A stretch of DNA of 64,000 bases from Phycisphaerae bacterium (GTDB lineage Bacteria; Planctomycetota; Phycisphaerae; UBA1845). Made by a program: the position numbers and the translations under genes. The stretch spans positions 271,116-335,115 of the forward strand of contig JAGFJJ010000069.1 in assembly GCA_024102815.1 (NCBI GenBank), in the 5' to 3' direction. Numbering within the stretch: position 1 is the stretch's first letter; the number at the start of each line of letters is the position of its first letter. The notes under the pieces were generated by a model. That model ran no database searches. It was not told where the DNA came from and saw nothing but the letters and a program-made list of their open reading frames with translations. Positions 42,077 through 56,353 of the stretch are shown here, piece after piece.

Positions 42077-44377
42077 ATGCAACACGTTCAACGTTACAAT
42101 CTCGCCTGGCTCTTTCTTGCATTGGTCACAATCGCACTCGTAAGTGCCGACCATGCCGCAGCACAGCCGGTGGTAAGCGCCCGCCTCCTGGCCGTGAAAT
42201 CCGCAGGCCTACTGGACGCCGTAACCGCATTGCCTCCGTCACAGACCGCCTATGAGGAGGGAGAGAGCTTCTTCCTGGAACTCTGGGTAACCACGAGCCA
42301 TCCGCAAGGACTGGCTTCCGTTTACGTGGATGTCGGTCTGTCTGCGCCGCTGATTACACTTCAGGATCCCAACGCCGGCCAACTTTTCACGTTCTTCACG
42401 AGTGGATTGTCTTCGCCGACGGGAATTGATGATATCGGCGGCTCCCATCTGGGCACCGCTTTCTGTGCCGACCAACTGGGCCTGACACCGCGCTGGGCTC
42501 GCCTGGCGATTGTTTCGGCACAGGCCACGACCAATGGGATGTGCACGCTGCAACTCGGCCCTTCGATGTCCCCTGCATTGGGGATCAGTATCTGCGGCAT
42601 GTTCGGAGACGTTCCGGTCGCGTCCGTGGATTACGGCCCGCCACTGAACATCGAGGTCATCGCTGTTCAGCGGTGCACGGCTAACGCCGATTGTGACGAC
42701 GGCGTCTTCTGTAATGGTTCGGAAGTCTGTGCCGAAGGTGTCTGCGCGCCCGGAGCGTTTCCGTGCGAGACGGGTCAGGGATGCGATGAAGCCAGCGAGA
42801 CGTGCGGTTCGTGCTTTGCCGACGGCGAATGCGACGATGGCGTGTTCTGTAATGGCGAGGAGACCTGTGACGTCTCTACAGGCGAGTGTGTTCCTGGGGC
42901 GTTCCCCTGCGGCGAGCTCGAAGGTTGCTTCGAGTCCATCGGAACATGCGGCGCCTGCACGGCCGACGCCCAGTGCCAGGATGGCCTATTCTGCAACGGC
43001 TCGGACTCGTGCGATCTGATCACCGGTATCTGTCTTCACAGTGGTTTCCCGTGTGGCGGAGCCGAAGGGTGTCTGGAGGACGTCGACGCGTGCGGACCGT
43101 GCAATGTCGATGATCAGTGCGACGATGGCCTGTTCTGTACGGGCGTGGAAACCTGCGACGTCGGTTCAGGCATTTGCATGGTTGGCGAGCTGCCATGCGG
43201 CGGCGAAGGCGTCTGTATCGAGTCAACCGAAAGCTGCGGAGACTGCGCAAGCGACGCCGATTGTGATGATGGTCTGTTCTGCAACGGCTCGGAGACCTGT
43301 GACCTCGCCAGCGGCACCTGCGTGACAGGAATCGCGCCTTGCCCCGGAGATTGTTACGAAGAAATCGACTCCTGCACGCCTCCGCCCCCCACGGGCGGTG
43401 GGGGTGGTGGAGGAAGTGGCGTTCCGGCTGACAACGACGGCGACGGCGTGCCCAATACCGAAGATAATTGCTTCGCAGTGGCGAACCCCGACCAGGCCGA
43501 TCTGGACAACGACGGCATCGGCGATGCCTGTGAAACGGATACAGACGGCGACTCGATTCCCAACGCACTGGACAATTGCCTGACGGTCCCGAATCCGAAT
43601 CAGCTTGATTCAGACGGAGACGGCTTCGGAAATGCGTGCGACGGATGCCCCAACGATCCCTCCAAGGTGATCCCCGGAGCTGACGGCTGCGCCAATGATG
43701 GCGGTGAGCCTCCGGGACCGCCCCCGAACAACGGGGATGACATCGACGGCGATGGCTGGGACAACGGCGAGGACAATTGTCCCGCGCTGAGCAACCCCGA
43801 CCAGATGGATGCCGACGGCGACGGTCTGGGCAACGCCTGCGACAATTGTCCGGGCATCGAAAACCTGACCCAGGAAGATGATGACGACGATGGTGTCGGA
43901 AATGCTTGCGATCATTGCCCCAATACGACCGATAACGTGGACGTCAATGCGTTCGGGTGTAGCGCGGAGCAGGACCCCGACGGCGATGGCATGCCCGATA
44001 ACAACGACGATACGCCGGGCAATCCGGTACCGACCGATAATTGTCCCGGTTTCTTCAACCCTGACCAGAATGATCGCGACAACGATGGCGTGGGAGACGC
44101 CTGTGACAACTGCCCCGACATCGCAAACACCAACCAGGACGACTTTGACGGCGATCGCTGGGGCGATGTCTGCGATAATTGTCTGATAACTCCCAATCCC
44201 GACCAGGAAGATGCCGACGCCGACGGTGTCGGCGACCAATGTGAGGACCTCGATCCGGGAACTTATGATCCACCTCGGCAACTCTGTGGCGCGTGCGGAT
44301 TAGGCACTCCCATGGCATTCTGGTTCTGCGCTTTGTTTTTAGCGGCCGTTCCGTGTAAGATGCGTCGTAGTCGGTGA
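42077..44377 (+). CDS. Exported scaffold-like protein: cohesin-like N-domain, 5 Cys-rich modules, Gly linker, TSP type-3 repeats, C-terminal sorting-signal-like tail
   Basis: Signal LAWLFLALVTIALVSADHAAAQ. Domain order is read directly from the translation. The tail is CGACGLGTPMAFWFCALFLAAVPCKMRRSR. Confidence 0.85.
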   Translation: MQHVQRYNLAWLFLALVTIALVSADHAAAQPVVSARLLAVKSAGLLDAVTALPPSQTAYEEGESFFLELWVTTSHPQGLASVYVDVGLSAPLITLQDPNAGQLFTFFTSGLSSPTGIDDIGGSHLGTAFCADQLGLTPRWARLAIVSAQATTNGMCTLQLGPSMSPALGISICGMFGDVPVASVDYGPPLNIEVIAVQRCTANADCDDGVFCNGSEVCAEGVCAPGAFPCETGQGCDEASETCGSCFADGECDDGVFCNGEETCDVSTGECVPGAFPCGELEGCFESIGTCGACTADAQCQDGLFCNGSDSCDLITGICLHSGFPCGGAEGCLEDVDACGPCNVDDQCDDGLFCTGVETCDVGSGICMVGELPCGGEGVCIESTESCGDCASDADCDDGLFCNGSETCDLASGTCVTGIAPCPGDCYEEIDSCTPPPPTGGGGGGGSGVPADNDGDGVPNTEDNCFAVANPDQADLDNDGIGDACETDTDGDSIPNALDNCLTVPNPNQLDSDGDGFGNACDGCPNDPSKVIPGADGCANDGGEPPGPPPNNGDDIDGDGWDNGEDNCPALSNPDQMDADGDGLGNACDNCPGIENLTQEDDDDDGVGNACDHCPNTTDNVDVNAFGCSAEQDPDGDGMPDNNDDTPGNPVPTDNCPGFFNPDQNDRDNDGVGDACDNCPDIANTNQDDFDGDRWGDVCDNCLITPNPDQEDADADGVGDQCEDLDPGTYDPPRQLCGACGLGTPMAFWFCALFLAAVPCKMRRSR
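42674..43375 (+). repeat. Five tandem ~42-aa Cys-rich modules
   Basis: [19 protein letters not shown]..., [19 protein letters not shown]..., CTADAQCQDGLFCNGSDSC..., CNVDDQCDDGLFCTGVETC..., CASDADCDDGLFCNGSETC.... Confidence 0.85.
43427..44249 (+). repeat. Thrombospondin type-3-like Ca2+-binding repeats
   Basis: Reiterated D-x-D-x-DG-x-x-D-x-x-DNC-x-x-x-x-NP-x-Q-x-D (for example DNDGDGVPNTEDNCFAVANPDQADLDNDGIGDACE; DRDNDGVGDACDNCPDIANTNQDD). Confidence 0.85.
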
Positions 44378-44632: not shown

Positions 44633-46000
44633 ATGCGGAAAAGAAGCGTAATAATCGGGGCGGGGATCTGGCTGATTATCGGAGGACTCTCCGGTACAGC
44701 GGCATTCGGACAGTGTGCATGGGATCCGGCTTTTGGAAACCCGGGCGTGAGCGGCGGGACTTTCCCAGCAGTCAATGCCCTAGCGGTCTACGACGACGGC
44801 GGCGGACCGGCCCTCTACATCGGCGGGTCGTTCAGCCAGGTGGGCGGCGTTCTCGCAAACAACATTGCCAAATGGAACGGCTCCTCCTGGAGCGCCCTGT
44901 CCTTCGGCGTCGACGCGCCTGTGTTTGCCATGACGGTGTACAACGACGGGACCGGCCCGGCCCTGTACGTCGGCGGGATGTTTACAACCGCCGGTCTCGT
45001 CACCGCGAATCGGGTCGCCAAGTGGAATGGCACGAGCTTCTCCGCCGTGGGTGGCGGAACCAGCAGCGTGGTTTATGCTCTGACCACATTCAATGACGGA
45101 ACGGGAACGGCCCTGTACGTGGGTGGCTCCTTTGCGACGGTCGGTCCCGGCAGCGGCTTGCTGGTCAACAATATCGCCAAATGGAACGGGACCTCCTGGA
45201 GCAAGCTTGGGACGCAGGGTGCCGGTTCCGTGGTCAACAGCCTGACGACATGGAATTCGGGGACCGGAAACGCGCTGTATGTCGCTGGGCTCTTTACCAG
45301 CGTCTCGGGAATCCCGGCCAACCGCGTCGCCATGTGGAATGGAATCGGATGGTCCGGACTGACGAGTGGTCTGAACAACGACGCAAACGTCGTCCTGGGA
45401 TCCAACGGCGGCCCGATCGGTACGTACCTTTACACCGGTGGCCTGTTTTCCACTGCAGGCGGGCCGTTGAGCCCTGCATCCAACATTGCCCGCTGGACCG
45501 GGACGTTCTGGACCAGCGTCGGCGCCGGGCTCAACGGCAAGGTGCTCGATTTGGCGATCCTGGATGAAGGATCCGGGCCGGTACTCATGGCTGGCGGAGA
45601 GTTTGATGCCGCCAACGGAACTGCGGTCAATCAAGTCGCGCGGTGGAACGGCACAGGCTGGTCGTCGGTGGGCGCGGGAACGAACGACACCGTTCGCGCC
45701 CTACTGTCCACGGATGAGACCAACGCCATCGGCCGCGCGCTCTACGTCGGCGGTCAATTCACGCAGGCAAACAATACGACGGCCAACCGCATCGCCCGCT
45801 GGGTCTGCTCGGTGACAATAGACGACTGCACGGGCGACGGCCGATTCGACCTCGACGACTTCGCGCGATGGGACGATTGTGACAACGGTCCCAACGGCGG
45901 ATTCGGGTCGTCGAACTGTGACTGCCTCGACCGGGACGAGGACGGCGACCTCGACCTGAGGGACTATGCCACGTTCCAGCGGATCTTTGCCGGGCCATGA
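44633..46000 (+). CDS. Secreted 7-blade beta-propeller-like repeat protein with dockerin-like C-terminus
   Basis: Signal VIIGAGIWLIIGGLSGTAAFGQ. Seven ~50-aa repeats. C-terminal DCTGDGRFDLDDFARW and DRDEDGDLDLRDYATFQRIF. Confidence 0.85.
   Translation: MRKRSVIIGAGIWLIIGGLSGTAAFGQCAWDPAFGNPGVSGGTFPAVNALAVYDDGGGPALYIGGSFSQVGGVLANNIAKWNGSSWSALSFGVDAPVFAMTVYNDGTGPALYVGGMFTTAGLVTANRVAKWNGTSFSAVGGGTSSVVYALTTFNDGTGTALYVGGSFATVGPGSGLLVNNIAKWNGTSWSKLGTQGAGSVVNSLTTWNSGTGNALYVAGLFTSVSGIPANRVAMWNGIGWSGLTSGLNNDANVVLGSNGGPIGTYLYTGGLFSTAGGPLSPASNIARWTGTFWTSVGAGLNGKVLDLAILDEGSGPVLMAGGEFDAANGTAVNQVARWNGTGWSSVGAGTNDTVRALLSTDETNAIGRALYVGGQFTQANNTTANRIARWVCSVTIDDCTGDGRFDLDDFARWDDCDNGPNGGFGSSNCDCLDRDEDGDLDLRDYATFQRIFAGP
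44761..45810 (+). repeat. Seven ~50-aa repeats (V-x-A-L-x-x-[FY]-NDGTG-x-ALYVGG-x-F-...-AN-x-IAKWNG-x-x-WS)
   Basis: For example VFAMTVYNDGTGPALYVGGMFTTAGLVTANRVAKWNGTSFSAVGGG and VVYALTTFNDGTGTALYVGGSFATVG...VNNIAKWNGTSWSKLG. Confidence 0.8.
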
Positions 46001-46222: not shown

Positions 46223-47557
46223 CTATTTCGAACCAGAATTGGGGCTGGAGCACCAGACGAGCATCCGCTCCGGGACGATCGGTTCAGATCGCCCGGTTCC
46301 GGTCTCGACAATCAGACCGCTGGCCAGGGCAATGTCGGGCACCCCGTCCTGATTGACATCGCCGATGGTCACGCCCGTTGACGCTGCCAATCCGGTGGAC
46401 GGCAACCCGCTGTTCTCCCAAAACCGGAAGCCACCCTTGCCATCCCCCAGCAGTGCAAAGATCCCGCGAACGAAGCCGCCCTCCGTCGTCAGACGGCCGG
46501 AAACTACGAGGTCCAGGTGTCCATCCTGATTGAGATCGTCGGTATCCAACCCGACGGCGCCGCCCTGCATATCCGGGAAAACGTCCGGCATCTTCCGCCA
46601 GGAGCCATCCGCCTGCTGCAGGTACACTTCAGGACCGTCCACCCAGTTTGCCACGGCGATGTCGACGCGGCCGTCCTCATTGAAATCACCCGTGGAGAGG
46701 CCGCCATAAAGGCCCTCGATCATCGGCGAAGGCAGCCCATCGGAAGCCGCGGTCCACCCGCCCTTGCCGTCACTCAACCAGACACGCGGCCCCACGGAAT
46801 GTGAAGCCAGAAGGTCCTTGATTCCGTCGCCGTTTACGTCAGCCAGCTCGACACGCACCGTCCAACGTGACGCCGGCAGACTCGTTTGGTCCTGCCTCTT
46901 CCAATTGTCTCCGGTGCCGTTCCCCAGATAGACGTTAATGCCGCCTTCGTCGGCCGCTCCCGATACGATGTCCGGAAATCCGTCTCCGTTGACGTCCCCG
47001 AGAACAAGGTCCTCGGCCCCTTGGAACATCTGCCGTTTCTGTGCCCCCGGCAACAGGTCCTCGGGGAACAATCCCTGCGCGATCGGTATCCAGCCTCCCT
47101 GTCCGTCACCCAGATACACGAATATTCCGTTGCAGTGATCGGCCACGGCCATGTCCAGGTGGCCATCGCCATTGATGTCGCCGAAGTCGAAACCGCCACC
47201 ACAGGAAGTCTGCGTCGCTGACAGTTTCCAGGAATTCTCCTTCCAACGACCTTCGCCATCGCCGAACCAGATGTGCGGTCCGATGCCCAATCGGGGCAAC
47301 GCCGCAAGATCGATGTACCCGTCGCCGTTAACGTCCAGAAGCATGGGGTCACACTTCCACATGCCGCTGGTGGGCAATCCAGTAGAACACAACTGATAGG
47401 GACCATCGGGAAGAGCCGGTTTTTTCGGCGTAGTCGCGGGAGGACTGTCTTGATCCACGGAGACCCTCGGCTTCGCCGATGAGCCGTTGCACCCTGCCAG
47501 CCACAAGATACCAGCGACGCCTGCAAGAACCGCGAAAGTGCACTTCGAACTTGTCAT
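46223..47557 (-). CDS. FG-GAP/VCBS repeat lipoprotein (7 repeats, integrin-alpha-like propeller)
   Basis: ATG 47557 with AAGGA upstream gives MTSSKCTFAVLAGVAGILWLAGC (lipobox). Loops: DVNGDGYID, DINGDGHLD, DVNGDGFPD, DVNGDGIKD, DFNEDGRVD, DLNQDGHLD, DVNQDGVPD. Confidence 0.85.
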   Translation of the reverse strand: MTSSKCTFAVLAGVAGILWLAGCNGSSAKPRVSVDQDSPPATTPKKPALPDGPYQLCSTGLPTSGMWKCDPMLLDVNGDGYIDLAALPRLGIGPHIWFGDGEGRWKENSWKLSATQTSCGGGFDFGDINGDGHLDMAVADHCNGIFVYLGDGQGGWIPIAQGLFPEDLLPGAQKRQMFQGAEDLVLGDVNGDGFPDIVSGAADEGGINVYLGNGTGDNWKRQDQTSLPASRWTVRVELADVNGDGIKDLLASHSVGPRVWLSDGKGGWTAASDGLPSPMIEGLYGGLSTGDFNEDGRVDIAVANWVDGPEVYLQQADGSWRKMPDVFPDMQGGAVGLDTDDLNQDGHLDLVVSGRLTTEGGFVRGIFALLGDGKGGFRFWENSGLPSTGLAASTGVTIGDVNQDGVPDIALASGLIVETGTGRSEPIVPERMLVWCSSPNSGSK

Positions 47558-47639
47558 TCCGATTTCCTTTGTGAAGCCCGAACTCGCGGCCGCGCGCCGC
47601 AGGATGAAGCACGAATTCATCAAGCGGGTACGATCCAGC

Positions 47640-48449: not shown

Positions 48450-48887
48450 GATACTTCCGCGTGTGGAGATACCGGTTGTTCCGGCGTGTAACATTCCGGT
48501 TGTCCGCATGATCGCTTTCGTGCGCCGGCGCGGAGTATAGGTCGTCGCGCATGAACCGCAAGCGTCGCCCGGTGTCTTACTCCTATCGGAAGAAGACCCG
48601 TCCTTTTCCTGAGTCGAACATAGACTTCGCTATAGCACTTTTCTCGGCAATCGATCCTGTCGCTGAGAGGATTATCGGACAGAAAATCCGATATTCGTCC
48701 GAGAAACTCGAAGCGCCGAAGCCGCTCATCCATTGACTATCGGTCCGCCTGTTGAGACAATGGTTCATCAATACCAAGGGGTCGAGTCTCGCTCGAATGG
48801 GGGATCGGGGGCGCGGCTCAAGAAAACCGCCGATAACCCGCTTTGCCTGATCGCCGGCTATCGTTTCCGCCTTCCCGGTTTGTGCCC

Positions 48888-51800
48888 ATGTTTTGGTTTC
48901 GTCGGTTACTCCTGGGGATGGTTGCGATCACGTCCGTCACGGCCGGTGAGCACGACCGCTTGGCCGGACGATACCTGCCGGCCCATGAGGGACCCTCGAC
49001 CGATCCCTTGCGGACAACGGATACGGAAGGCGCTTCATCGCCGTCCCGCGGACCATTGGCAAGCACCTGGATTCGCGGCCGCTATGTCAGTGTCCAGGTC
49101 AATGTCGACGCCAACGGCGCCAACATCGTCGGAGACGCCGCCAACGAGCCCTCCCTCGCCATCGACCCCACCAACCCCCTGCGGATGGTTATCGGGTGGC
49201 GGCAGTTCGATTCCGTAACTTCGGATTTTCGCCAGGCCGGCTGGGCATACAGCCACGACAGCGGACGCCACTGGACCTTTCCCGGCGTCATCGAACCCGG
49301 CGTCCGGCGGAGCGATCCGGTTCTTTTCAGCGACGCCGGCGGTAGTTTCTTTTATTTGAGCCTCGGGCGCAGCGGAGAGCTCTTCACGACTCAGCTCTTT
49401 CGCTCGACGGACGGCGGGCTTTCCTGGTCCAGAATCGGACCGACCGACTTTGGCGGGGACAAGCCCTGGGCAGCCGTCGATCCAACCGGCGGAATCGGCG
49501 GCGGAAACATCTACGTCTCCTGGGGATCAATCGGATGCTGCGACAACCGCATCTTCATGCGCTCCGTTGACGGGGGCATGACCTTCGACACGCCAGTAAC
49601 GATTCCGCAGCAGCCCATCTGGGGCACCATTTCGGCCGGGCCCGACGGCACGGTCTACGTCGCGGGAAAGCGCCCCCTTTTTGACAACGAGTTCATCATC
49701 GCCCGCTCATCAACCATCAAGGACCCGGCCAATCCTCTCGAATTCGACTTCGGTGCGGAAGTCGACATGGGGGGCCGATTTCTTGCCAACCCCGGAACAG
49801 GGCCCAATCCGGACGGACTCTACGGGCAAGTCTGGGTCGCCACGGACCATTCCGATCGCCCCACCCGCGGCAACGTATACATGCTTTGCTCCGTCACGCC
49901 GTTCGATCCTTTCAACTTCGATCCCCTCGACGTCCACTTTGTTGCCAGCACGAACGGCGGTCTCAATTGGAGCGCCCCGGTTCGCATCAACGACGACCCC
50001 GTGGGGAATTTCGCTTGGCAGTGGTTCGGCACGATGTCGGTTGCTCCCAACGGCCGCATCGACGTCATCTGGAACGACACCCGCAACGACATCACGCAAA
50101 CGTATTCCGAGCTCTACTACGCCTATTCTCTTGACGGCGGAATCACCTGGTCCGAGAACGAGCCGGTAAGCCCGCCGTTTGCCCATGCCGTCGGCTACCC
50201 CAACCAGGAGAAGCTCGGTGACTACTACCACATGATCTCCGACAATGCCGGCGCTCACGTGGCCTACGCCGCTACCTTTAATGGAGAGCAGGACGTCTAC
50301 TATCTCCGCATCCTCGCCCGCGATTGCAACGAGAACGGCATTCCCGACGAGGAGGACGTCGCGAACGGGACAAGTCCCGATTGCAACGGGAATGACGTTC
50401 CCGACGAGTGCGAACTTACTGGAAACGACTGCAACGGCAATCAGGTACCGGACGTCTGCGATGTGGATGCTGGAACGAGTTCCGACTGCCAGGACGACGG
50501 CATCCCCGACGAGTGCCAGCTTGCCGATCAGGATTGCAACGACTCGGGCGTTCCCGATACGTGCGAGTTGCCCGGTAACGACTGCGACGGAAACGGCGTC
50601 CTTGACTCCTGCGAGCTGAGCGGCCGCGACTGCAACGCCAACGGACGAATCGACGCATGTGATACGGCCGGTGGATTCAGTCTCGACTGTCAGGGTGACC
50701 AGATTCCCGACGAATGCCAACTCGCGGACAATGACTGCGACGGAAGCGGCATCCCCGATGCGTGCGAACTCGCTACGCGCGACTGCAACGGCAATGGTGT
50801 GCTCGACTCGTGCGACGTGTCGGCAGGTGCGAGCCTTGATTGTCAGGGAAACGGCCAGCCGGATGAGTGCGAACTCCAGCAGAACGACTGCAATTTCAAC
50901 AACATTCCCGACGACTGCGAACTGGTCGGCAACGACTGCAACCTCACGGGGATTCCCGATGAGTGCGAGCTCAGCGGCAACGACTGCAACGCGACCGGCA
51001 TCCCCGACGAATGCGAACTGATCGGTAACGACTGCAATCACAATATGCAGCCGGACTCCTGTGACATCGCATCAGGCACGAGCGCCGACTGCCAGCTCAA
51101 TGGCGTTCCGGACGAATGTGAACTCGCCGGCAACGACTGCGACGGCAGCGGCGTTCCCGACGAGTGCGAGCTTTCCGGACGAGACTGCAATGGCAACCTC
51201 CGGCTGGATTCGTGTGACATTGCTGCGGGGAGCAGCCCGGATTGCCAGCTCAACGGCACTCCGGACGAGTGTGAACTCATCGGCAACGACTGCAACGCCA
51301 CCGGCGTCCCGGATGAATGCGAGCTGGCCGGCAATGACTGCGACGGCAGCGGCGTTCCCGACGAATGCGAACTTCCCGGAAACGATTGCAATGGAAATCA
51401 ACGGCTCGATTCTTGCGACTTGGCGTCCGGCTCCAGCCGGGATTGTCAATCCAACGCCGTTCCCGACGAGTGCGAGCTTGCCGGCAACGACTGCAACCTG
51501 ACGGGGATTCCCGATGAGTGCGAGCTCGCCGGCAACGACTGCAATGCAAACGGTCGGCCGGACACGTGCGACATTGTCTCCGGTGCGAGTAAGGATTGCC
51601 AGGTCAACGGCATCCCCGACGAATGCGAACTTGCCGGCAACGACTGCGACGGCAACAGCATCCCCGACCAGTGTGAATTGTCCGGTCGGGACTGCGACGG
51701 AAACCACGTGCTGGACTCCTGCGAGCTCTCCGGGCGGGATTGTGACAGTAACGCCAAATTGGACGTCTGCGAACTTTCCGGCCGGGATTGCGACGGCAAT

Positions 51801-53654
51801 CACGTACTCGATAGCTGCGAACTCGCCGGGCGCGACTGCAACAACAACGGCGTGCTCGACCCGTGCGACCTTGCCCGTGGGACAAGCCAGGACTGCCAGT
51901 CCAATGGCATCCCCGACGAGTGCGAACTCGCAGGCGATGACTGCAACGGCGACGGTGTTCCCGACACCTGCCAGATCACCACGCGAGACTGTAATCGAAA
52001 TGACAGGCTCGATTCATGCGACATCGCCGCCGGCACGAGTGCGGATTGTCAGAGCGACGGCCGTCCCGACGAGTGCCAGCTTCTTGGCAACGACTGCAAT
52101 CAGAATGGCGAGCCCGACGAATGTGATCTGATCGCAGGGACTTCCGAGGACGCCAACAACAACGGGCTCCTCGATGAGTGCGAACCGCAGCCATGCGATC
52201 TGGTCAACGTTGCCCGAATCCTGCCCGTTGGCGGCGGGCTCGGCGATACCTTTGGATCGGCCGTTGATATCGACGGCGAGTGGATGCTTGTTGGTGCACA
52301 GAGCTTCGACACGTCATTCGACCGCGCCGGCGCGTCGTGGTTCTACCGTATTCAAGGCAACGACATCCTGCCGGGCACGCGGGTCCTGGCGAATGATGGT
52401 GACCGCGACGACCGCTTTGGTTGGTCCGTGTCGCTCGACGGCAATATCGCCGCGATTTCCGCCATCTACGACGACGATGTCACATCCAACTCGGGATCGG
52501 TCTACGTCTATCGACTGATCGGCCAGACATGGACGTTCGAGGCCAAGCTGAGTGCTTCGGATCCCGGTTCCGGAGATGCCTTCGGTCACAGCGTTTCGGT
52601 TGGCGGCGACCGGATTCTTATCGGCGCCCGCTACGACGATGACCGCGGAAGCAACAGCGGTTCCGCTTACGTCTTCCGATGGACGGGTTCATTGTGGGTA
52701 CAGGAAGCCAAGCTGCTCGCCGCCGACGGCCAGCCCTCCGATTTCTTCGGTTCCGCCGTCGCGCTGTCGGGGACTGTGGCGGTCGTCGGTGCCTTTGGCG
52801 AGGACGAGCGCGGCGGGACCGCGGGCGCGGCCTACGTTTATGAAAGGACCGGGACGCTTTGGACTCAGAAGGCCAAGTTGCTGGCGCTGGATGGCAAGAC
52901 CGATGACTGGTTCGGCGCGGCCGTCGCCACCGACGGAGACCGAATACTCGTCGGTGCCCGCTACACCGATGAACAGGGCTCCGGGTCCGGTTCGGCCTAT
53001 TTCTTCCAGAAAGTAGCCGGAATCTGGCAACCCGCGGGCAAGATCCTGCCCGCTGATGGCGCCGCCGGCGACGGATTCGGCGTTGCCGTGGATCTTGACG
53101 GGTCCTTCGCCATCGTTGGTGCGGACGGTGGCGATGATGGCGCCACGAATGCCGGAGCAGCCTACATCTTTGCCTGGGATGGTGTCAGTTGGGCTCAGCA
53201 GGCGAAGATTCTTCCGTCCGTTCGAAACTCGGGCGCGCAATTTGGCATAGCCGTCGGCCTCTCCGGTTCGAATGGAGTCGCAGGCGCTCAATATGCGAAT
53301 AACTTGTCCGGCGTCAGCACCGGCGCCGCGAGTTTGTTTACCGGAATTGACGACTGCAATCGAAACCTCGGGCTCGATGCTTGTGATCTTGTTAACGGGC
53401 TTAGCTCCGACAGTGATGGAAACGGCCGTCCCGATGAGTGCGACTTGACCGTGCCGGGGGACTACGACCTGGACGGGGATGTTGACCTTGCGGATTACGC
53501 TGGATTCCTTGGCTGCGCTGCCGGTCCAGCGTCGGTACTCAGCGCTTCGAGCGGAAACACGCTCCGGTGCCTTGGGGCCTTCGATTCTGACGGCGACGAG
53601 GACATTGATCTGTTCGATTTCGCTCGATTCCAGGCGATTCTGCAAACCCCCTGA
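48888..53654 (+). CDS. Giant (1588 aa) secreted protein: BNR/sialidase-like propeller, 37 Cys-flanked acidic-loop repeats, 7 FG-GAP repeats, dockerin-like tail
   Basis: ATG 48888 gives MFWFRRLLLGMVAITSVTAG. Asp-boxes SHDSGRHW, STDGGLSW, SVDGGMTF, STNGGLNW, SLDGGITW. The repeat arrays are listed separately. The tail is GDYDLDGDVDLADYAGFL...FDSDGDEDIDLFDFARFQAIL. Confidence 0.9.
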   Translation: MFWFRRLLLGMVAITSVTAGEHDRLAGRYLPAHEGPSTDPLRTTDTEGASSPSRGPLASTWIRGRYVSVQVNVDANGANIVGDAANEPSLAIDPTNPLRMVIGWRQFDSVTSDFRQAGWAYSHDSGRHWTFPGVIEPGVRRSDPVLFSDAGGSFFYLSLGRSGELFTTQLFRSTDGGLSWSRIGPTDFGGDKPWAAVDPTGGIGGGNIYVSWGSIGCCDNRIFMRSVDGGMTFDTPVTIPQQPIWGTISAGPDGTVYVAGKRPLFDNEFIIARSSTIKDPANPLEFDFGAEVDMGGRFLANPGTGPNPDGLYGQVWVATDHSDRPTRGNVYMLCSVTPFDPFNFDPLDVHFVASTNGGLNWSAPVRINDDPVGNFAWQWFGTMSVAPNGRIDVIWNDTRNDITQTYSELYYAYSLDGGITWSENEPVSPPFAHAVGYPNQEKLGDYYHMISDNAGAHVAYAATFNGEQDVYYLRILARDCNENGIPDEEDVANGTSPDCNGNDVPDECELTGNDCNGNQVPDVCDVDAGTSSDCQDDGIPDECQLADQDCNDSGVPDTCELPGNDCDGNGVLDSCELSGRDCNANGRIDACDTAGGFSLDCQGDQIPDECQLADNDCDGSGIPDACELATRDCNGNGVLDSCDVSAGASLDCQGNGQPDECELQQNDCNFNNIPDDCELVGNDCNLTGIPDECELSGNDCNATGIPDECELIGNDCNHNMQPDSCDIASGTSADCQLNGVPDECELAGNDCDGSGVPDECELSGRDCNGNLRLDSCDIAAGSSPDCQLNGTPDECELIGNDCNATGVPDECELAGNDCDGSGVPDECELPGNDCNGNQRLDSCDLASGSSRDCQSNAVPDECELAGNDCNLTGIPDECELAGNDCNANGRPDTCDIVSGASKDCQVNGIPDECELAGNDCDGNSIPDQCELSGRDCDGNHVLDSCELSGRDCDSNAKLDVCELSGRDCDGNHVLDSCELAGRDCNNNGVLDPCDLARGTSQDCQSNGIPDECELAGDDCNGDGVPDTCQITTRDCNRNDRLDSCDIAAGTSADCQSDGRPDECQLLGNDCNQNGEPDECDLIAGTSEDANNNGLLDECEPQPCDLVNVARILPVGGGLGDTFGSAVDIDGEWMLVGAQSFDTSFDRAGASWFYRIQGNDILPGTRVLANDGDRDDRFGWSVSLDGNIAAISAIYDDDVTSNSGSVYVYRLIGQTWTFEAKLSASDPGSGDAFGHSVSVGGDRILIGARYDDDRGSNSGSAYVFRWTGSLWVQEAKLLAADGQPSDFFGSAVALSGTVAVVGAFGEDERGGTAGAAYVYERTGTLWTQKAKLLALDGKTDDWFGAAVATDGDRILVGARYTDEQGSGSGSAYFFQKVAGIWQPAGKILPADGAAGDGFGVAVDLDGSFAIVGADGGDDGATNAGAAYIFAWDGVSWAQQAKILPSVRNSGAQFGIAVGLSGSNGVAGAQYANNLSGVSTGAASLFTGIDDCNRNLGLDACDLVNGLSSDSDGNGRPDECDLTVPGDYDLDGDVDLADYAGFLGCAAGPASVLSASSGNTLRCLGAFDSDGDEDIDLFDFARFQAILQTP
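50322..52184 (+). repeat. 37 tandem 16-aa/19-aa coding repeats (DC-N-x-N-G-x-PDEC-E-L-x-G-x)
   Basis: Units were counted directly from the translation. Short units: DCDGSGVPDECELSGR, DCNATGIPDECELIGN. Long units: DCNGNLRLDSCDIAAGSSP, DCNHNMQPDSCDIASGTSA. Confidence 0.9.
52240..53340 (+). repeat. Seven FG-GAP-type repeats
   Basis: GDTFGSAVDIDGEWMLVGA, DDRFGWSVSLDGNIAAISA...SGSVYVY, GDAFGHSVSVGGDRILIGA...SGSAYVF, SDFFGSAVALSGTVAVVGA...AGAAYVY, DDWFGAAVATDGDRILVGA...SGSAYFF, GDGFGVAVDLDGSFAIVGA...AGAAYIF, GAQFGIAVGLSGSNGVAGA. Confidence 0.85.
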
Positions 53655-53963: not shown

Positions 53964-55370
53964 ATGGGAATTGCGCTCATGCTCCAACCAACAATGGGCA
54001 TTATCGTCGGCGGCGGGCCCGCCCCGGGCATCAACGGCGTCATCGGTGCCGCCGCCATCGAGGCTGTCAACAATGGCTTGAAAGTCGTCGGCTTCTACGA
54101 CGGGTTCAGCTACCTCGCCGGCGAGGAGTTCGATCCCGACCAGCATTCCGTCGACTTGAGCATCCGAGACGTCGGGCGAATCCACTTCGACGGTGGCTCG
54201 ATTCTCCGCACTGCTCGAACGAGCCTGCTCGATATCGAGGCGCTGAAGTCCTCCACAGTAGCCAGGCCCGACATGCCCCGCGTCGTTCGCGTTTACGAAC
54301 GCCTTCGGCAGCGCGGCGTCACCCACCTGCTCACCATCGGCGGCGACGATACCGCGCTGAGCGCCCGCTTCGTGGCCGACCACTCCGGCGGGCGCATTCG
54401 CGTCGTTCACGTTCCCAAGACCATCGACAACGACCTCCCCCTTCCGGGTGATACACCAACGTTCGGATTCACCACAGCACGCCACTTGGGCTCGACGATC
54501 ATCGCCAACCTCATGGAAGACTCCCGAACGACGAAGCGTTGGTACATCGTCGTCACCATGGGTCGCAACGCAGGCCACCTGGCGCTGGGAATCGGCAAGG
54601 CTGCTGGGGCCACCATGACCCTTATTCCGGAGGAATTCGGGGAATCCACGAGCATTCGCGCCATCGCCGATCACATCGAGGGCGCCATCCTCAAGCGCCG
54701 CACAATGGGCCGTCAGGATGGTGTTGCTGTACTGGCCGAAGGGCTTGCCTACAAGCTGGGGGATCGCGAAGAACTTTCCCGGATTCTCGGGCGGGAGGTT
54801 CCCGTTGACGCCGCCGGACATCCCCGGCTTTCGGAGGTTCCCCTGGCCAGGATCATTACCGACGAGCTCCAGCGCCGCTTCCGGGAGCGCGGGGACAAGC
54901 TGACCCTCGTCGCCCACACCCTGGGCTATGAGCTCCGCTGTGCCCGTCCGACGACTTTTGATATGGGCTACACACGCGACCTGGGCCACGGCGGGGTGCG
55001 CCTCCTCCTGGACTCCACGCGCGATCTGCCGCCGGGCGTCATGGTTGCGCTCAAGGAGGGTAATCTGCAGCCCGTGGCCTTCGAGGACATGGTGGACCCC
55101 CATTCCAACCGCACGCGCGTCCGCTATGTCGATTTGACGAGCTACAGCTACAGTGTTGCCCGCGCCTACATGATCCGCCTCGAGAGAAATGACTTCGAGT
55201 CGCCGACCATGCTCGCCGCCATCGCCGCTGAGGCGGGACTGACCCCCCACCAATTCCGCCAGCGCTACGCCCACGTCGTGGAGGCCAGAACGCTGACGGT
55301 CAGCGACCGCGGTGGCCGCGCTCGCGACGTCGTCGCCCCGTGCGGACCCATTCCCAACCAAGCATCGTAG
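53964..55370 (+). CDS. pfp: 6-phosphofructokinase, pyrophosphate-dependent signature
   Basis: GGGPAPGINGVI, LLTIGGDDTA, VVHVPKTIDNDL, TFGFTTA, VTMGRNAGHLALG. GGDD plus PKTIDND is the Asp/Lys pair associated with PPi use. Confidence 0.88.
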   Translation: MGIALMLQPTMGIIVGGGPAPGINGVIGAAAIEAVNNGLKVVGFYDGFSYLAGEEFDPDQHSVDLSIRDVGRIHFDGGSILRTARTSLLDIEALKSSTVARPDMPRVVRVYERLRQRGVTHLLTIGGDDTALSARFVADHSGGRIRVVHVPKTIDNDLPLPGDTPTFGFTTARHLGSTIIANLMEDSRTTKRWYIVVTMGRNAGHLALGIGKAAGATMTLIPEEFGESTSIRAIADHIEGAILKRRTMGRQDGVAVLAEGLAYKLGDREELSRILGREVPVDAAGHPRLSEVPLARIITDELQRRFRERGDKLTLVAHTLGYELRCARPTTFDMGYTRDLGHGGVRLLLDSTRDLPPGVMVALKEGNLQPVAFEDMVDPHSNRTRVRYVDLTSYSYSVARAYMIRLERNDFESPTMLAAIAAEAGLTPHQFRQRYAHVVEARTLTVSDRGGRARDVVAPCGPIPNQAS

Positions 55371-55612: not shown

Positions 55613-56353
55613 ATGACTGCACCCGTTCTCCATGTCATCTCGGGCTGCCCTGGTTTTCAGCGGACGCTGACGGAACTTGCAGAGGACCGTGCCGCAGAGC
55701 TCCTGCTTTACGCCGATCCCGACGCCTTCGGCGCAGGCCACGACGCTCATGTCGAACCCGAGTGCCTGGTTCTGGATGTGGGCGACCCTTCGTTCGAGAG
55801 CAGCAGAGCCGCGGGGCGATTGCCGGAATCGCTCCGAAACGCCCCCCCGCTCATCTTGGCGGTACCGTTTTGTGGAGGGTGCTGTTTACTCGTCGCGGAC
55901 GCGCTGCGTTGCGGTGCCGAACTCCTGGCCAAACCGCTGAACGCGACGGCGCTTTCCGACATGGTCACGCGGGCGTGGAATGTGGACCGGCGCCGCAAGA
56001 CATTCCGCACCAAGCGCGACGAGATCGCGCGGCGGCTTGGAACGCTGACGCATCGTGAACGCCAGGTCCTCGACCTCGTGGCGTGCGGCTACCCCAACAA
56101 ATGCATCGCCGCGGAACTTGAGTTGAGCCAGAAGACGGTCGAGGCTCACCGTTCCAAAGTCATGCACAAGATGCAGGCCCGGTCCCTCGCAAAGTTGATT
56201 CACATGCTGTACATGCTCGAGCCGGGTAGCATGGATCAGGAACTCATCATCGGATCAGCCGAACAACCGCGGGAGGCGATTCCGCCCCTCGATATGCGCC
56301 GGTGGGCTCCAGCGAACCCCTTGTTGGTTCACGCCGCCGCGGCCAACTCCTGA
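55613..56353 (+). CDS. LuxR/FixJ-family regulator with degenerate receiver domain
   Basis: C-terminal LTHRERQVLDLVACGYPNKCIAAELELSQKTVEAHRSKVMHKM HTH. The N-terminal REC-like fold lacks the acidic pair (HVISGCPG) but keeps LVLDV and AKPL. Confidence 0.85.
   Translation: MTAPVLHVISGCPGFQRTLTELAEDRAAELLLYADPDAFGAGHDAHVEPECLVLDVGDPSFESSRAAGRLPESLRNAPPLILAVPFCGGCCLLVADALRCGAELLAKPLNATALSDMVTRAWNVDRRRKTFRTKRDEIARRLGTLTHRERQVLDLVACGYPNKCIAAELELSQKTVEAHRSKVMHKMQARSLAKLIHMLYMLEPGSMDQELIIGSAEQPREAIPPLDMRRWAPANPLLVHAAAANS

Follow-up and report, generated by a model that had tools for sequence, protein, structure and literature searches.

We analysed a window of 64,000 nucleotides from a Phycisphaerae bacterium (GenBank assembly GCA_024102815.1, contig JAGFJJ010000069.1, positions 271,116 to 335,115), in which one gene encodes a protein with a continuous array of 37 short cysteine-containing units between two beta-propellers. 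The repeat itself is real beyond reasonable doubt. We propose that the array is a spacer of tunable length, stabilised by Ca2+ and by disulfide bonds, in a secreted two-propeller protein, and we assign this reading a probability of about 0.62. In this model, 37 miniature Ca2+-binding loops would be chained into a stiff spacer within a protein that is secreted or exposed at the cell surface.

The array motif is D-C-[NDQ]-x-[NDST]-G-[VI]-[PL]-D-x-C-[EDQ], and each unit is 16 or 19 amino acids long. The initial annotation of this DNA counted 37 tandem units of these two lengths, and we reproduced that count in the frame of the open reading frame (ORF): 26 units are short and 11 are long, and 35 are complete, with one degenerate half-unit at each end. 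The first unit (DCNENGIPDEED, amino acid 494) lacks the cysteine at position 11 (C11), and the last (DANNNGLLDECE, amino acid 1103) lacks the cysteine at position 2 (C2). Each cysteine is present in 36 of the 37 units, in agreement with the near-invariance first reported for them, and the aspartates at positions 1 and 9 are present in all 37. Position 3 is asparagine in 20 units, glutamine in nine and aspartate in eight; position 5 is asparagine in 25 and aspartate, serine or threonine in four each. Glycine occupies position 6 in 24 units, position 8 is proline (26), leucine (10) or isoleucine (1), and position 12 is glutamate (22), aspartate (11) or glutamine (4). The string D-C-x8-C occurs 35 times between amino acids 513 and 1095, spaced by only 16 or 19 residues, and once more at amino acid 1504, and each of the remaining five frames of the window has zero to two matches. 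Of the boundaries first given for the array, 50322 and 52184, the start stands and the end does not, as the array with its trailing cysteine extends to 52196.

The units are also ordered at a higher level. Each 19-residue unit closes with [IVL]-x-x-G-x-S-x, and the unit that follows always begins with DCQ. The super-repeat suggested in the initial annotation is real: Tandem Repeats Finder (TRF) reported periods of 48, 96, 153, 201 and 354 nucleotides over the array, and the super-repeat consists of a DCQ-short-long block plus a DCQ-short-short-long block, with sub-periods of 153 and 201 nucleotides.

The array units share on average 60% nucleotide identity and 53% amino acid identity, 46% of same-residue codon pairs between units differ in their codon, and the longest exact DNA repeat is 29 nucleotides. 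Thus, the array is old, is under selection as a peptide and is easy to assemble. This agrees with the earlier view that the copies differ by synonymous changes and are maintained at the peptide level, and we reject recent slippage as their origin. The source is a metagenome-assembled genome (MAG), and tandem repeats easily collapse or expand, which raises the question of whether the length or sequence of the array could be an artefact of assembly or annotation in a repetitive, GC-rich region. We consider this very unlikely, because the identical protein is encoded both on the NCBI MAG contig and on two contigs of Logan assemblies, of which one comes from SRR13799155. Apart from the low identity between units and the short exact repeats, the reading frame is open over 1,603 codons between two conserved domains, and close relatives with this domain order have arrays of similar length: L001, the closest relative, has 30 complete units, and the partial protein P0001 also has a long one.

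The composition of the array is extreme, with 151 acidic and 19 basic residues and only two aromatic residues in 625 amino acids. Thus, the array should need both counter-ions and cross-links in order to fold.

As C11 is missing from the first unit and C2 from the last, we tabulated the presence and absence of each cysteine over consecutive units in two sets of family members, one of 121 proteins with 2,363 unit pairs and the other of 132 other cluster representatives. The presence of C2 in one unit and C11 in the next, C2(i) and C11(i+1), was strongly correlated in both (phi 0.878, p 2.5e-230, in the 121 proteins; phi 0.85, p 1e-296, in the 132 representatives). C2(i) and C11(i) of the same unit were uncorrelated (phi about -0.04 in both sets), and for C11(i) and C2(i+1) phi was -0.10 in the first set and 0.02 in the second. 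There were 195 junctions at which both cysteines were lost together, and these were spread over 77 proteins with diverse sequences. The array ends follow the same rule: arrays started with a unit that had only C2 in 57 cases and only C11 in six, and ended with a unit that had only C11 in 53 cases and only C2 in three. The shortest arrays are the simplest. Two-unit arrays in L015, L016, L028, L049, L067 and L070 contain exactly two cysteines, C2 of the first unit and C11 of the second (for instance DCNNNGIHDSDD-IASSTSQ-DLNNNLIPDECE in L028), and arrays of three or four units (L012, L037, L054, L065 and L045) have C2 in units 1 to n-1 and C11 in units 2 to n. Because of the covariation, the array ends and the minimal arrays taken together, C2(i)-C11(i+1) is the sole pairing that fits arrays of any length. 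We conclude that the disulfides are very likely staggered, so that they link neighbouring loops as a ladder. Additionally, covariation of cysteine presence and absence between neighbouring repeats offers a simple readout of disulfide topology from sequence alone.

The staggered arrangement accounts for the cysteines of the present protein from C495 onward, which pair completely as 39 predicted bonds. All 36 predicted C2(i)-C11(i+1) pairs of the array are Cys-Cys (495-523, 514-539 and so on to 1085-1113), and the predicted bonds span 25 or 28 residues. C1118, which lies just before the C-terminal FG-GAP propeller, probably pairs with C1514, the C11 of the first unit after that propeller; this pair is what is left over by elimination only. 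C1505-C1533, also assigned by elimination, and C1558-C1576 would complete the set.

The initial annotation had instead taken each 12-residue loop to be a Ca2+ site clamped by a C2-C11 disulfide of its own, which would amount to independent sites arranged like beads on a string. Such a clamp would be consistent with the presence of both cysteines, at a fixed nine-residue spacing, in 35 of the 37 units, and there is a precedent in Blastomyces BAD-1, which contains tandem disulfide-closed loops of 17 amino acids (PMC3708853). However, the presence of the two cysteines does not covary within a unit (phi -0.04 and 0.04-0.06). Moreover, the clamp would leave the lone C2 of the first unit and the lone C11 of the last unpaired about 600 residues apart, and two-unit arrays hold only C2 of the first unit and C11 of the second. 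On these data, we abandon the earlier proposal as very unlikely.

The second element of the staggered, ion-bound spacer is calcium. In EF-hand, dockerin and thrombospondin type 3 (TSP3) loops, positions 1, 3, 5, 9 and 12 carry the ligands and position 6 is glycine. We delimited 5,253 units of the family by cysteine spacing only and found that these five positions hold oxygen-donor residues in 98-99% of them. Position 1 is aspartate in 97%, position 3 is asparagine (72%) or aspartate (21%), position 5 is asparagine (83%) or aspartate (11%), position 9 is aspartate in 97%, and position 12 is aspartate (54%), glutamate (35%) or glutamine (7%). Glycine at position 6 (68%), valine or isoleucine at position 7 (71%) and proline at position 8 (71%) are also common. 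The least conserved positions are 4, 10, 14 and 15, which are surface-exposed. The original observation that each unit carries the ligand pattern of a 12-residue EF-hand or dockerin loop therefore holds across the family. The PROSITE pattern PS00018 matches seven array units exactly and 19 if proline is allowed at position 8. Curated models for Ca2+-binding domains also recognise units of relatives: EF-hand_5 passes its cut-off in P0026 (35.8 against 25.9 bits), TSP3_bac matches the cysteine units of P0062 (E 1.9e-14), and Dockerin_1 in P0116 aligns over two cysteine units plus a true dockerin loop. These patterns suggest that the array units are likely to bind Ca2+.

It could be argued that no metal is involved and that disulfides alone hold the spacer together, while aspartate and asparagine serve solubility, hydration, helix capping or a charge repulsion that extends the chain. 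The dominance of asparagine at positions 3 and 5, the use of glutamine at position 3 and the rarity of the strict Dx[DN]xDG motif would all be expected of such a spacer, and no curated Ca2+-binding model scores on this array. However, a conservation of 97-99% at the five canonical ligand positions, together with Gly6, is hard to ascribe to solubility, and a stretch of 625 amino acids that has a net charge of about -130 and no core calls for counter-ions. The EF-hand_5 score on the units of P0026 points in the same direction. We regard a metal-free array as unlikely.

A side observation concerns position 5. The string D-x-N-x-[ST], the extended bacterial N-glycosylation sequon, occurs in five units (amino acids 564, 698, 714, 816 and 883; for example DCNLT at 50934-50948). 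Across the family, serine and threonine jointly account for about 3% of the residues at position 5, and therefore these sequons are probably coincidental; a general role in N-glycosylation was rejected.

We modelled ten units (amino acids 749-917) with AlphaFold 2 (AF2) from an in-register alignment of 52 rows, as an earlier suggestion to predict the structure of several units had envisaged, and obtained a confident model (mean predicted local distance difference test, pLDDT, 91.8; predicted template modelling score, pTM, 0.73). In the model, each unit has an eight-residue loop followed by a helix from position 9, which is four residues long in short units and seven in long units. Assignment with DSSP gave no helix before the loop in any modelled unit. 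A Foldseek search of the array model against the PDB returned only matches at E 5-9, to calmodulin and to thrombospondin-1 (1UX6, E 6).

Based on these data, we propose the following mechanism. Each unit would consist of an eight-residue loop and a helix of one or two turns that starts at D9, with neither an entering helix nor a hydrophobic core. The side-chain oxygens of positions 1, 3, 5, 9 and 12 and the backbone at position 7 would be arranged as in EF-hand, dockerin and TSP3 loops and would hold approximately one Ca2+ per unit. C2 of each unit would bond to C11 of the next, which would staple every unit to both of its neighbours in an overlapping ladder of 36 bonds, and the leftover C1118 and C1514 would probably close off the FG-GAP propeller, which would thereby sit as an insert within the array. 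The metal ions and the disulfide ladder may thus substitute for a hydrophobic core. The outcome would be a spacer that is extended and resists proteases and in which copy number determines the length; it would keep the N-terminal BNR-like propeller at a distance from the FG-GAP propeller and from the dockerin-like anchoring module at the C-terminus.

The repeat joins very different domains, and its copy number ranges from 0 to 30 units after one and the same propeller and reaches 64 elsewhere. These findings lead us to favour, by a modest degree, a passive spacer role for the array. Conversely, the array might itself be the functional surface, either as a multivalent, cation-dependent binder of anionic polysaccharides, minerals or metals or as a dockerin-like string that recruits cohesin-type partners in the manner of a 'planctosome'. 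The Dockerin_1 alignment in P0116 and the sole weak sequence match in the PDB, a double dockerin (8x39), lend themselves to this idea; the flanking propellers are typical ligand binders, and for freshwater Phycisphaerae a 'planctosome' of cohesins and dockerins that includes TSP3-type repeats has been put forward as a hypothesis (PMC6461901). However, the units do not have the helices of 10-12 residues that form the cohesin-binding face of dockerins. Copy number varies freely and the exposed positions 4, 10, 14 and 15 are the least conserved, whereas the reverse would be expected of a specific binding face. In the window, no cohesin turned up, although no search was aimed at one. An array that is itself the binding surface is therefore, in our opinion, rather unlikely, and we retain the Ca2+- and disulfide-stabilised spacer.

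The repeat belongs to a very large family that has neither a curated model nor a solved structure. When 1.84 billion cluster representatives were searched exhaustively with a profile, 11,903 of them matched at E <= 1e-3 and 2,447 at E <= 1e-30, and a word-indexed search gave at least 6,660 homologous proteins at E < 1e-5. Named relatives among the matches listed are Planctomycetota, mainly Phycisphaerae MAGs. The largest array has up to 64 complete units in one protein of 3,867 amino acids. Across the family, the repeat is joined to FG-GAP, PKD, LamG, FGE-sulfatase and metallophosphoesterase domains, to the proprotein-convertase P-domain, to beta-helices and to peptidases. The commonest unit spacing is 19 amino acids, followed by 13 and 16; the present array mostly uses 16. 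L001, which shares 63% identity in the N-terminal propeller, has the upper value of 30 units after it.

The minimal two-unit modules with a single cysteine pair (L015, L016, L028, L049, L067 and L070) follow the FNGEQDVYY motif of the BNR-like propeller. According to labels derived from genome bins, L016 and L049 come from Planctomycetota, L015 from Latescibacterota, L028 from Thermodesulfobacteriota, L067 from Armatimonadota and L070 from an unclassified bacterium (HR15). Other versions of this propeller from outside the planctomycetes end in a tail like that of the type IX secretion system (T9SS; …YLYRL…RKMLLLR) and not in the dockerin-like tail.

The initial annotation could not name a described family for the unit, and our searches gave the same result. 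Pfam and NCBIfam, applied to the whole protein, the array and sub-fragments, gave no match on the array except a sub-threshold match to DUF7151, and sequence searches of the PDB with the array, a 16-column unit profile and a 183-column profile of ten units returned only the double dockerin 8x39 (E 0.07-0.6). A literature search for the motif strings DCNGNG, CNGNGIPD and DCNANG found no occurrence. Neither the unit nor its disulfide pattern was described in anything that we found, and keyword searches matched only general thrombospondin, dockerin and 'planctosome' papers. DUF7151 (PF23657) scored 26.1 bits on amino acids 934-1016, below its cut-off of 27.2 bits, and matched 12 of 46 profile positions, so that the array was not assigned to it; a search of the literature by the name of this family found no publication. 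The stretch that it matches (51642-51890) is a run of units with leucine at position 8 (DCDGNHVLDSCELSGR and similar).

By analogy, the nearest known parallel to the array appears to be the thrombospondin type 3 repeat rather than the EF-hand or dockerin. As a reference set, we used Pfam TSP_3 (PF02412), the calcium 'wire' of thrombospondin-1 and -2 (TSP-1, TSP-2) and COMP, and the structures 1UX6, 1YO8 and 3FBY. Both kinds of repeat are tandem, core-less series of 12-residue loops rich in aspartate and asparagine, both contain the sub-motifs 'DG[VI]PD' and 'GDxC[DQ]', and both are found in extracellular multi-domain proteins. In thrombospondin-1 (1UX6), the position-11 cysteine of the D-x-D-x-D-x-x-x-D-x-C-D loop bonds to a cysteine 20 residues upstream (C856-C876; PMC6526912). 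The predicted C2(i)-C11(i+1) bonds of the present array would likewise join the position-11 cysteine to one in the preceding motif. The COMP and TSP-2 sequences have two types of loop, 'DxDxDG[VI]PDxxD' and 'DxDxDGxGDxC[DQ]', and judging by its motif the present unit looks like a hybrid of them. The two repeats nevertheless differ in several respects. Units of the present family are 13-19 amino acids long and have one type of loop, whereas the TSP3 repeat is 36 amino acids long and alternates C-type and N-type loops. The upstream cysteine is at loop position 2 here and in a 'DNCP' spacer in TSP3, and the present unit has no N-x-x-Q spacer and uses asparagine instead of aspartate at positions 3 and 5. 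Membership in Pfam TSP_3 was rejected: the model did not match the array protein, the 36-residue 'DNCP-x3-N-x2-Q' unit is absent, and a profile alignment to TSP3 repeats with hhalign scored poorly (see below). The TSP3_bac model (PF18884), which scores on P0062, has no match on the present protein either.

An EF-hand is a helix-loop-helix whose flanking helices are about 10 residues long and which pairs with another hand round a hydrophobic core. The present unit resembles it in its 12-residue loop with oxygen ligands at positions 1, 3, 5, 9 and 12, Gly6 and a helix that starts at about position 9 or 10. However, it has no entering helix, an exiting helix of only four to seven residues, no paired-hand core, proline at position 8 in 70% of units, and invariant cysteines at positions 2 and 11. 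EF-hand models searched against the array protein and its fragments at E values up to 10 found no match. In view of this result, the missing helix-loop-helix and the two aromatic residues available for a core, we reject identity with the EF-hand.

Type I dockerins (PF00404) also carry duplicated D-x-[ND]-x-[ND]-G loops for Ca2+ in secreted bacterial proteins, and the present protein has a dockerin-like module at its own C-terminus, directly after two cysteine units. In contrast to the array, dockerin segments are 22 amino acids long, have cohesin-binding helices of 10-12 residues and lack the cysteine pair. As the helices of the array units are too short and Dockerin_1 does not match the array, we do not consider the array to be a dockerin.

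Dx[DN]xDG is a short linear Ca2+-binding motif found in many unrelated scaffolds, thrombospondin among them (Rigden et al. 2011, PMC3123361); the present repeat is not described in that paper. The principle of a short linear motif of aspartate, asparagine and glycine is the same. However, the strict motif occurs in only one of the 37 units, and position 5 is predominantly asparagine across the family, so that the array falls outside the strict class. In the hypothetical 'planctosome' of freshwater Phycisphaerae, 'thrombospondin type 3 repeats' are drawn between P-domains (PMC6461901). Relative P0026, in which a P-domain is flanked by cysteine arrays, has the same layout, and therefore such repeats may already have been loosely labelled as TSP3.

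Several points weigh against our proposal. First, the junction between a tail unit and a head unit could be a conserved cassette in which C11(i) bonds locally to C2(i+1), and the covariation would then be overstated; the array ends and the minimal arrays speak against such a bond. Second, three cysteines in the N-terminal propeller (C232, C233 and C349) make the pairing incomplete over the protein as a whole. Third, most loops have asparagine rather than aspartate at positions 3 and 5, glutamine stands at position 3 in nine array units, and the single strict Dx[DN]xDG is DCNGDG at amino acid 1033. Because of this, some units may have a low affinity for Ca2+ or even be poorly occupied. Fourth, the rod shape of the array is an assumption. 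Last, hhalign of unit pairs against TSP3 repeats gave a probability of 16.5%, which is too weak for homology.

The repeat is a compact, single-loop, asparagine-rich bacterial counterpart of TSP3-type repeats that is very abundant, uncurated and structurally unsolved, and its underlying principle is already known. A more far-reaching reading, which we offer tentatively and at a little less than even odds, is that it represents an undescribed continuous chain of helix-less miniature EF-loops, with about one Ca2+ for every 13-19 residues, zipped by C2(i)-C11(i+1) bonds into a core-less nanorod whose length varies with copy number, from two to more than 60 units. It would then be a signature surface module of Phycisphaerae and Planctomycetota (at least 11,900 clusters), either independent of the metazoan TSP3 wire or far diverged from it. 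If the model is true, thousands of 'hypothetical' planctomycete surface proteins would gain an interpretable module that sets the reach of enzymes and binding domains from the cell. It would also give bacteria a counterpart of the calcium wire of thrombospondins and show a second way of lacing Ca2+ loops together. Furthermore, a 16-residue repeat with one ion and one disulfide per unit would be a minimal scaffold for designed rods and metal-binding materials. A Pfam or InterPro family could be built directly from the present alignments.

The features of the gene are listed in Table 1. The protein is identical in sequence to NCBI MCO6438901.1 ('hypothetical protein J5J06_17545 [Phycisphaerae bacterium]'), which is encoded on a MAG contig of 401 kb, and Logan assemblies hold a version of it with 1,578 amino acids. 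The ORF on the forward strand extends upstream to a TTG at 48843 and is free of stops over 48843..53654. From the N- to the C-terminus, the order of domains is a probable signal peptide, the BNR-like propeller, the array, the FG-GAP propeller, two further units and the dockerin-like tail.

Table 1. Features of the gene for the two-propeller protein, in positions of the 64,000-nucleotide window.
Feature	Position	Strand	Remarks
Whole-protein coding sequence	48888..53654	+	1,588 amino acids from the ATG used by NCBI
Probable signal peptide MFWFRRLLLGMVAITSVTAGE	48888..48950	+	Translation by eye: basic, then hydrophobic, then small residues
N-terminal BNR/sialidase-like beta-propeller	49065..50321	+	Pfam BNR_2 E 6e-6, BNR Asp-box 1.7e-5, BNR_4 6e-4
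Array of 37 Cys units of 16 or 19 amino acids	50322..52196	+	Amino acids 494-1118; ends with the trailing cap Cys C1118
Super-repeat in the array	50896..51667	+	TRF period 354 nucleotides = 118 amino acids, 2.2 copies, 74% matches
FG-GAP beta-propeller, seven blades	52197..53351	+	Pfam FG-GAP_2 E 6.9e-95, 7 stretches
Two extra Cys units after the propeller	53352..53447	+	Amino acids 1504-1535; DCNRNLGLDACD with C2 and C11, DSDGNGRPDECD with C11 only
C-terminal dockerin-like module	53457..53651	+	Two DxDxDG loops, a helix after each; conserved Cys pair C1558/C1576

The N-terminus, translated by eye, is signal-like (MFWFRRLLLGMVAITSVTAG), which suggests that the protein is probably secreted; with its C-terminal module, it is probably also anchored at the surface. 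The two propellers on either side of the array, sialidase-like and FG-GAP, and the two further units near 53350-53450 are as the initial annotation described them. The BNR-type matches on the N-terminal propeller are weak and all lie under the curated cut-offs. This propeller has 374 relatives in GTDB genome contigs. Its three cysteines (49536-49541 and 49887-49889) include a vicinal CC pair, and either at least one of them is unpaired or a vicinal disulfide is present.

The C-terminal module was modelled by AF2 with a pLDDT of 80.9. Dockerins were ten of its 12 Foldseek matches in the PDB (best E 0.21, probability 0.97), none of which was statistically significant, and the TMt value to 2y3n_B was 0.69. 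Pfam Dockerin_1 matched the module at E 1.7 only, and the corresponding match in P0116 was at E 4e-6. The module thus appears dockerin-like by the ranking of predicted folds only. The cassette at 53352-53651, in which two cysteine units are followed by a dockerin-like module with a cysteine pair, recurs at the C-termini of many relatives, including P0140, P0001, P0239, P0212, P0116, P0123 and P0155. It may be an anchoring or sorting module of family members.

ORFs on the opposite strand or in other frames over the array (for example 49710-51041 and 51072-51803 on the reverse strand) show no signs of being genes, and we dismissed them as by-products of repetitive coding DNA with 61% GC.

Upstream, a gene at 42077-44377 on the forward strand encodes a secreted protein of 766 amino acids with five classical TSP3 repeats (Pfam TSP_3 E 3e-23). 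These are preceded by cysteine-rich repeats of the form 'C.DG.FCNG.E.C', and the C-terminal tail is hydrophobic and basic. True TSP3 repeats and the compact cysteine units thus coexist in one genome, and the Pfam model separates them. Two propeller-type genes adjoin the gene for the array protein, at 44633-46000 (forward strand) and 46223-47623 (reverse strand); one has weak Rax2/DUF5122 matches and the other matches FG-GAP_3 (E 3.5e-51). Secreted repeat proteins are thus encoded in a local cluster here. On the downstream side are a PFK gene (53964-55370) and a gene for a LuxR/GerE-type regulator (55613-56353).

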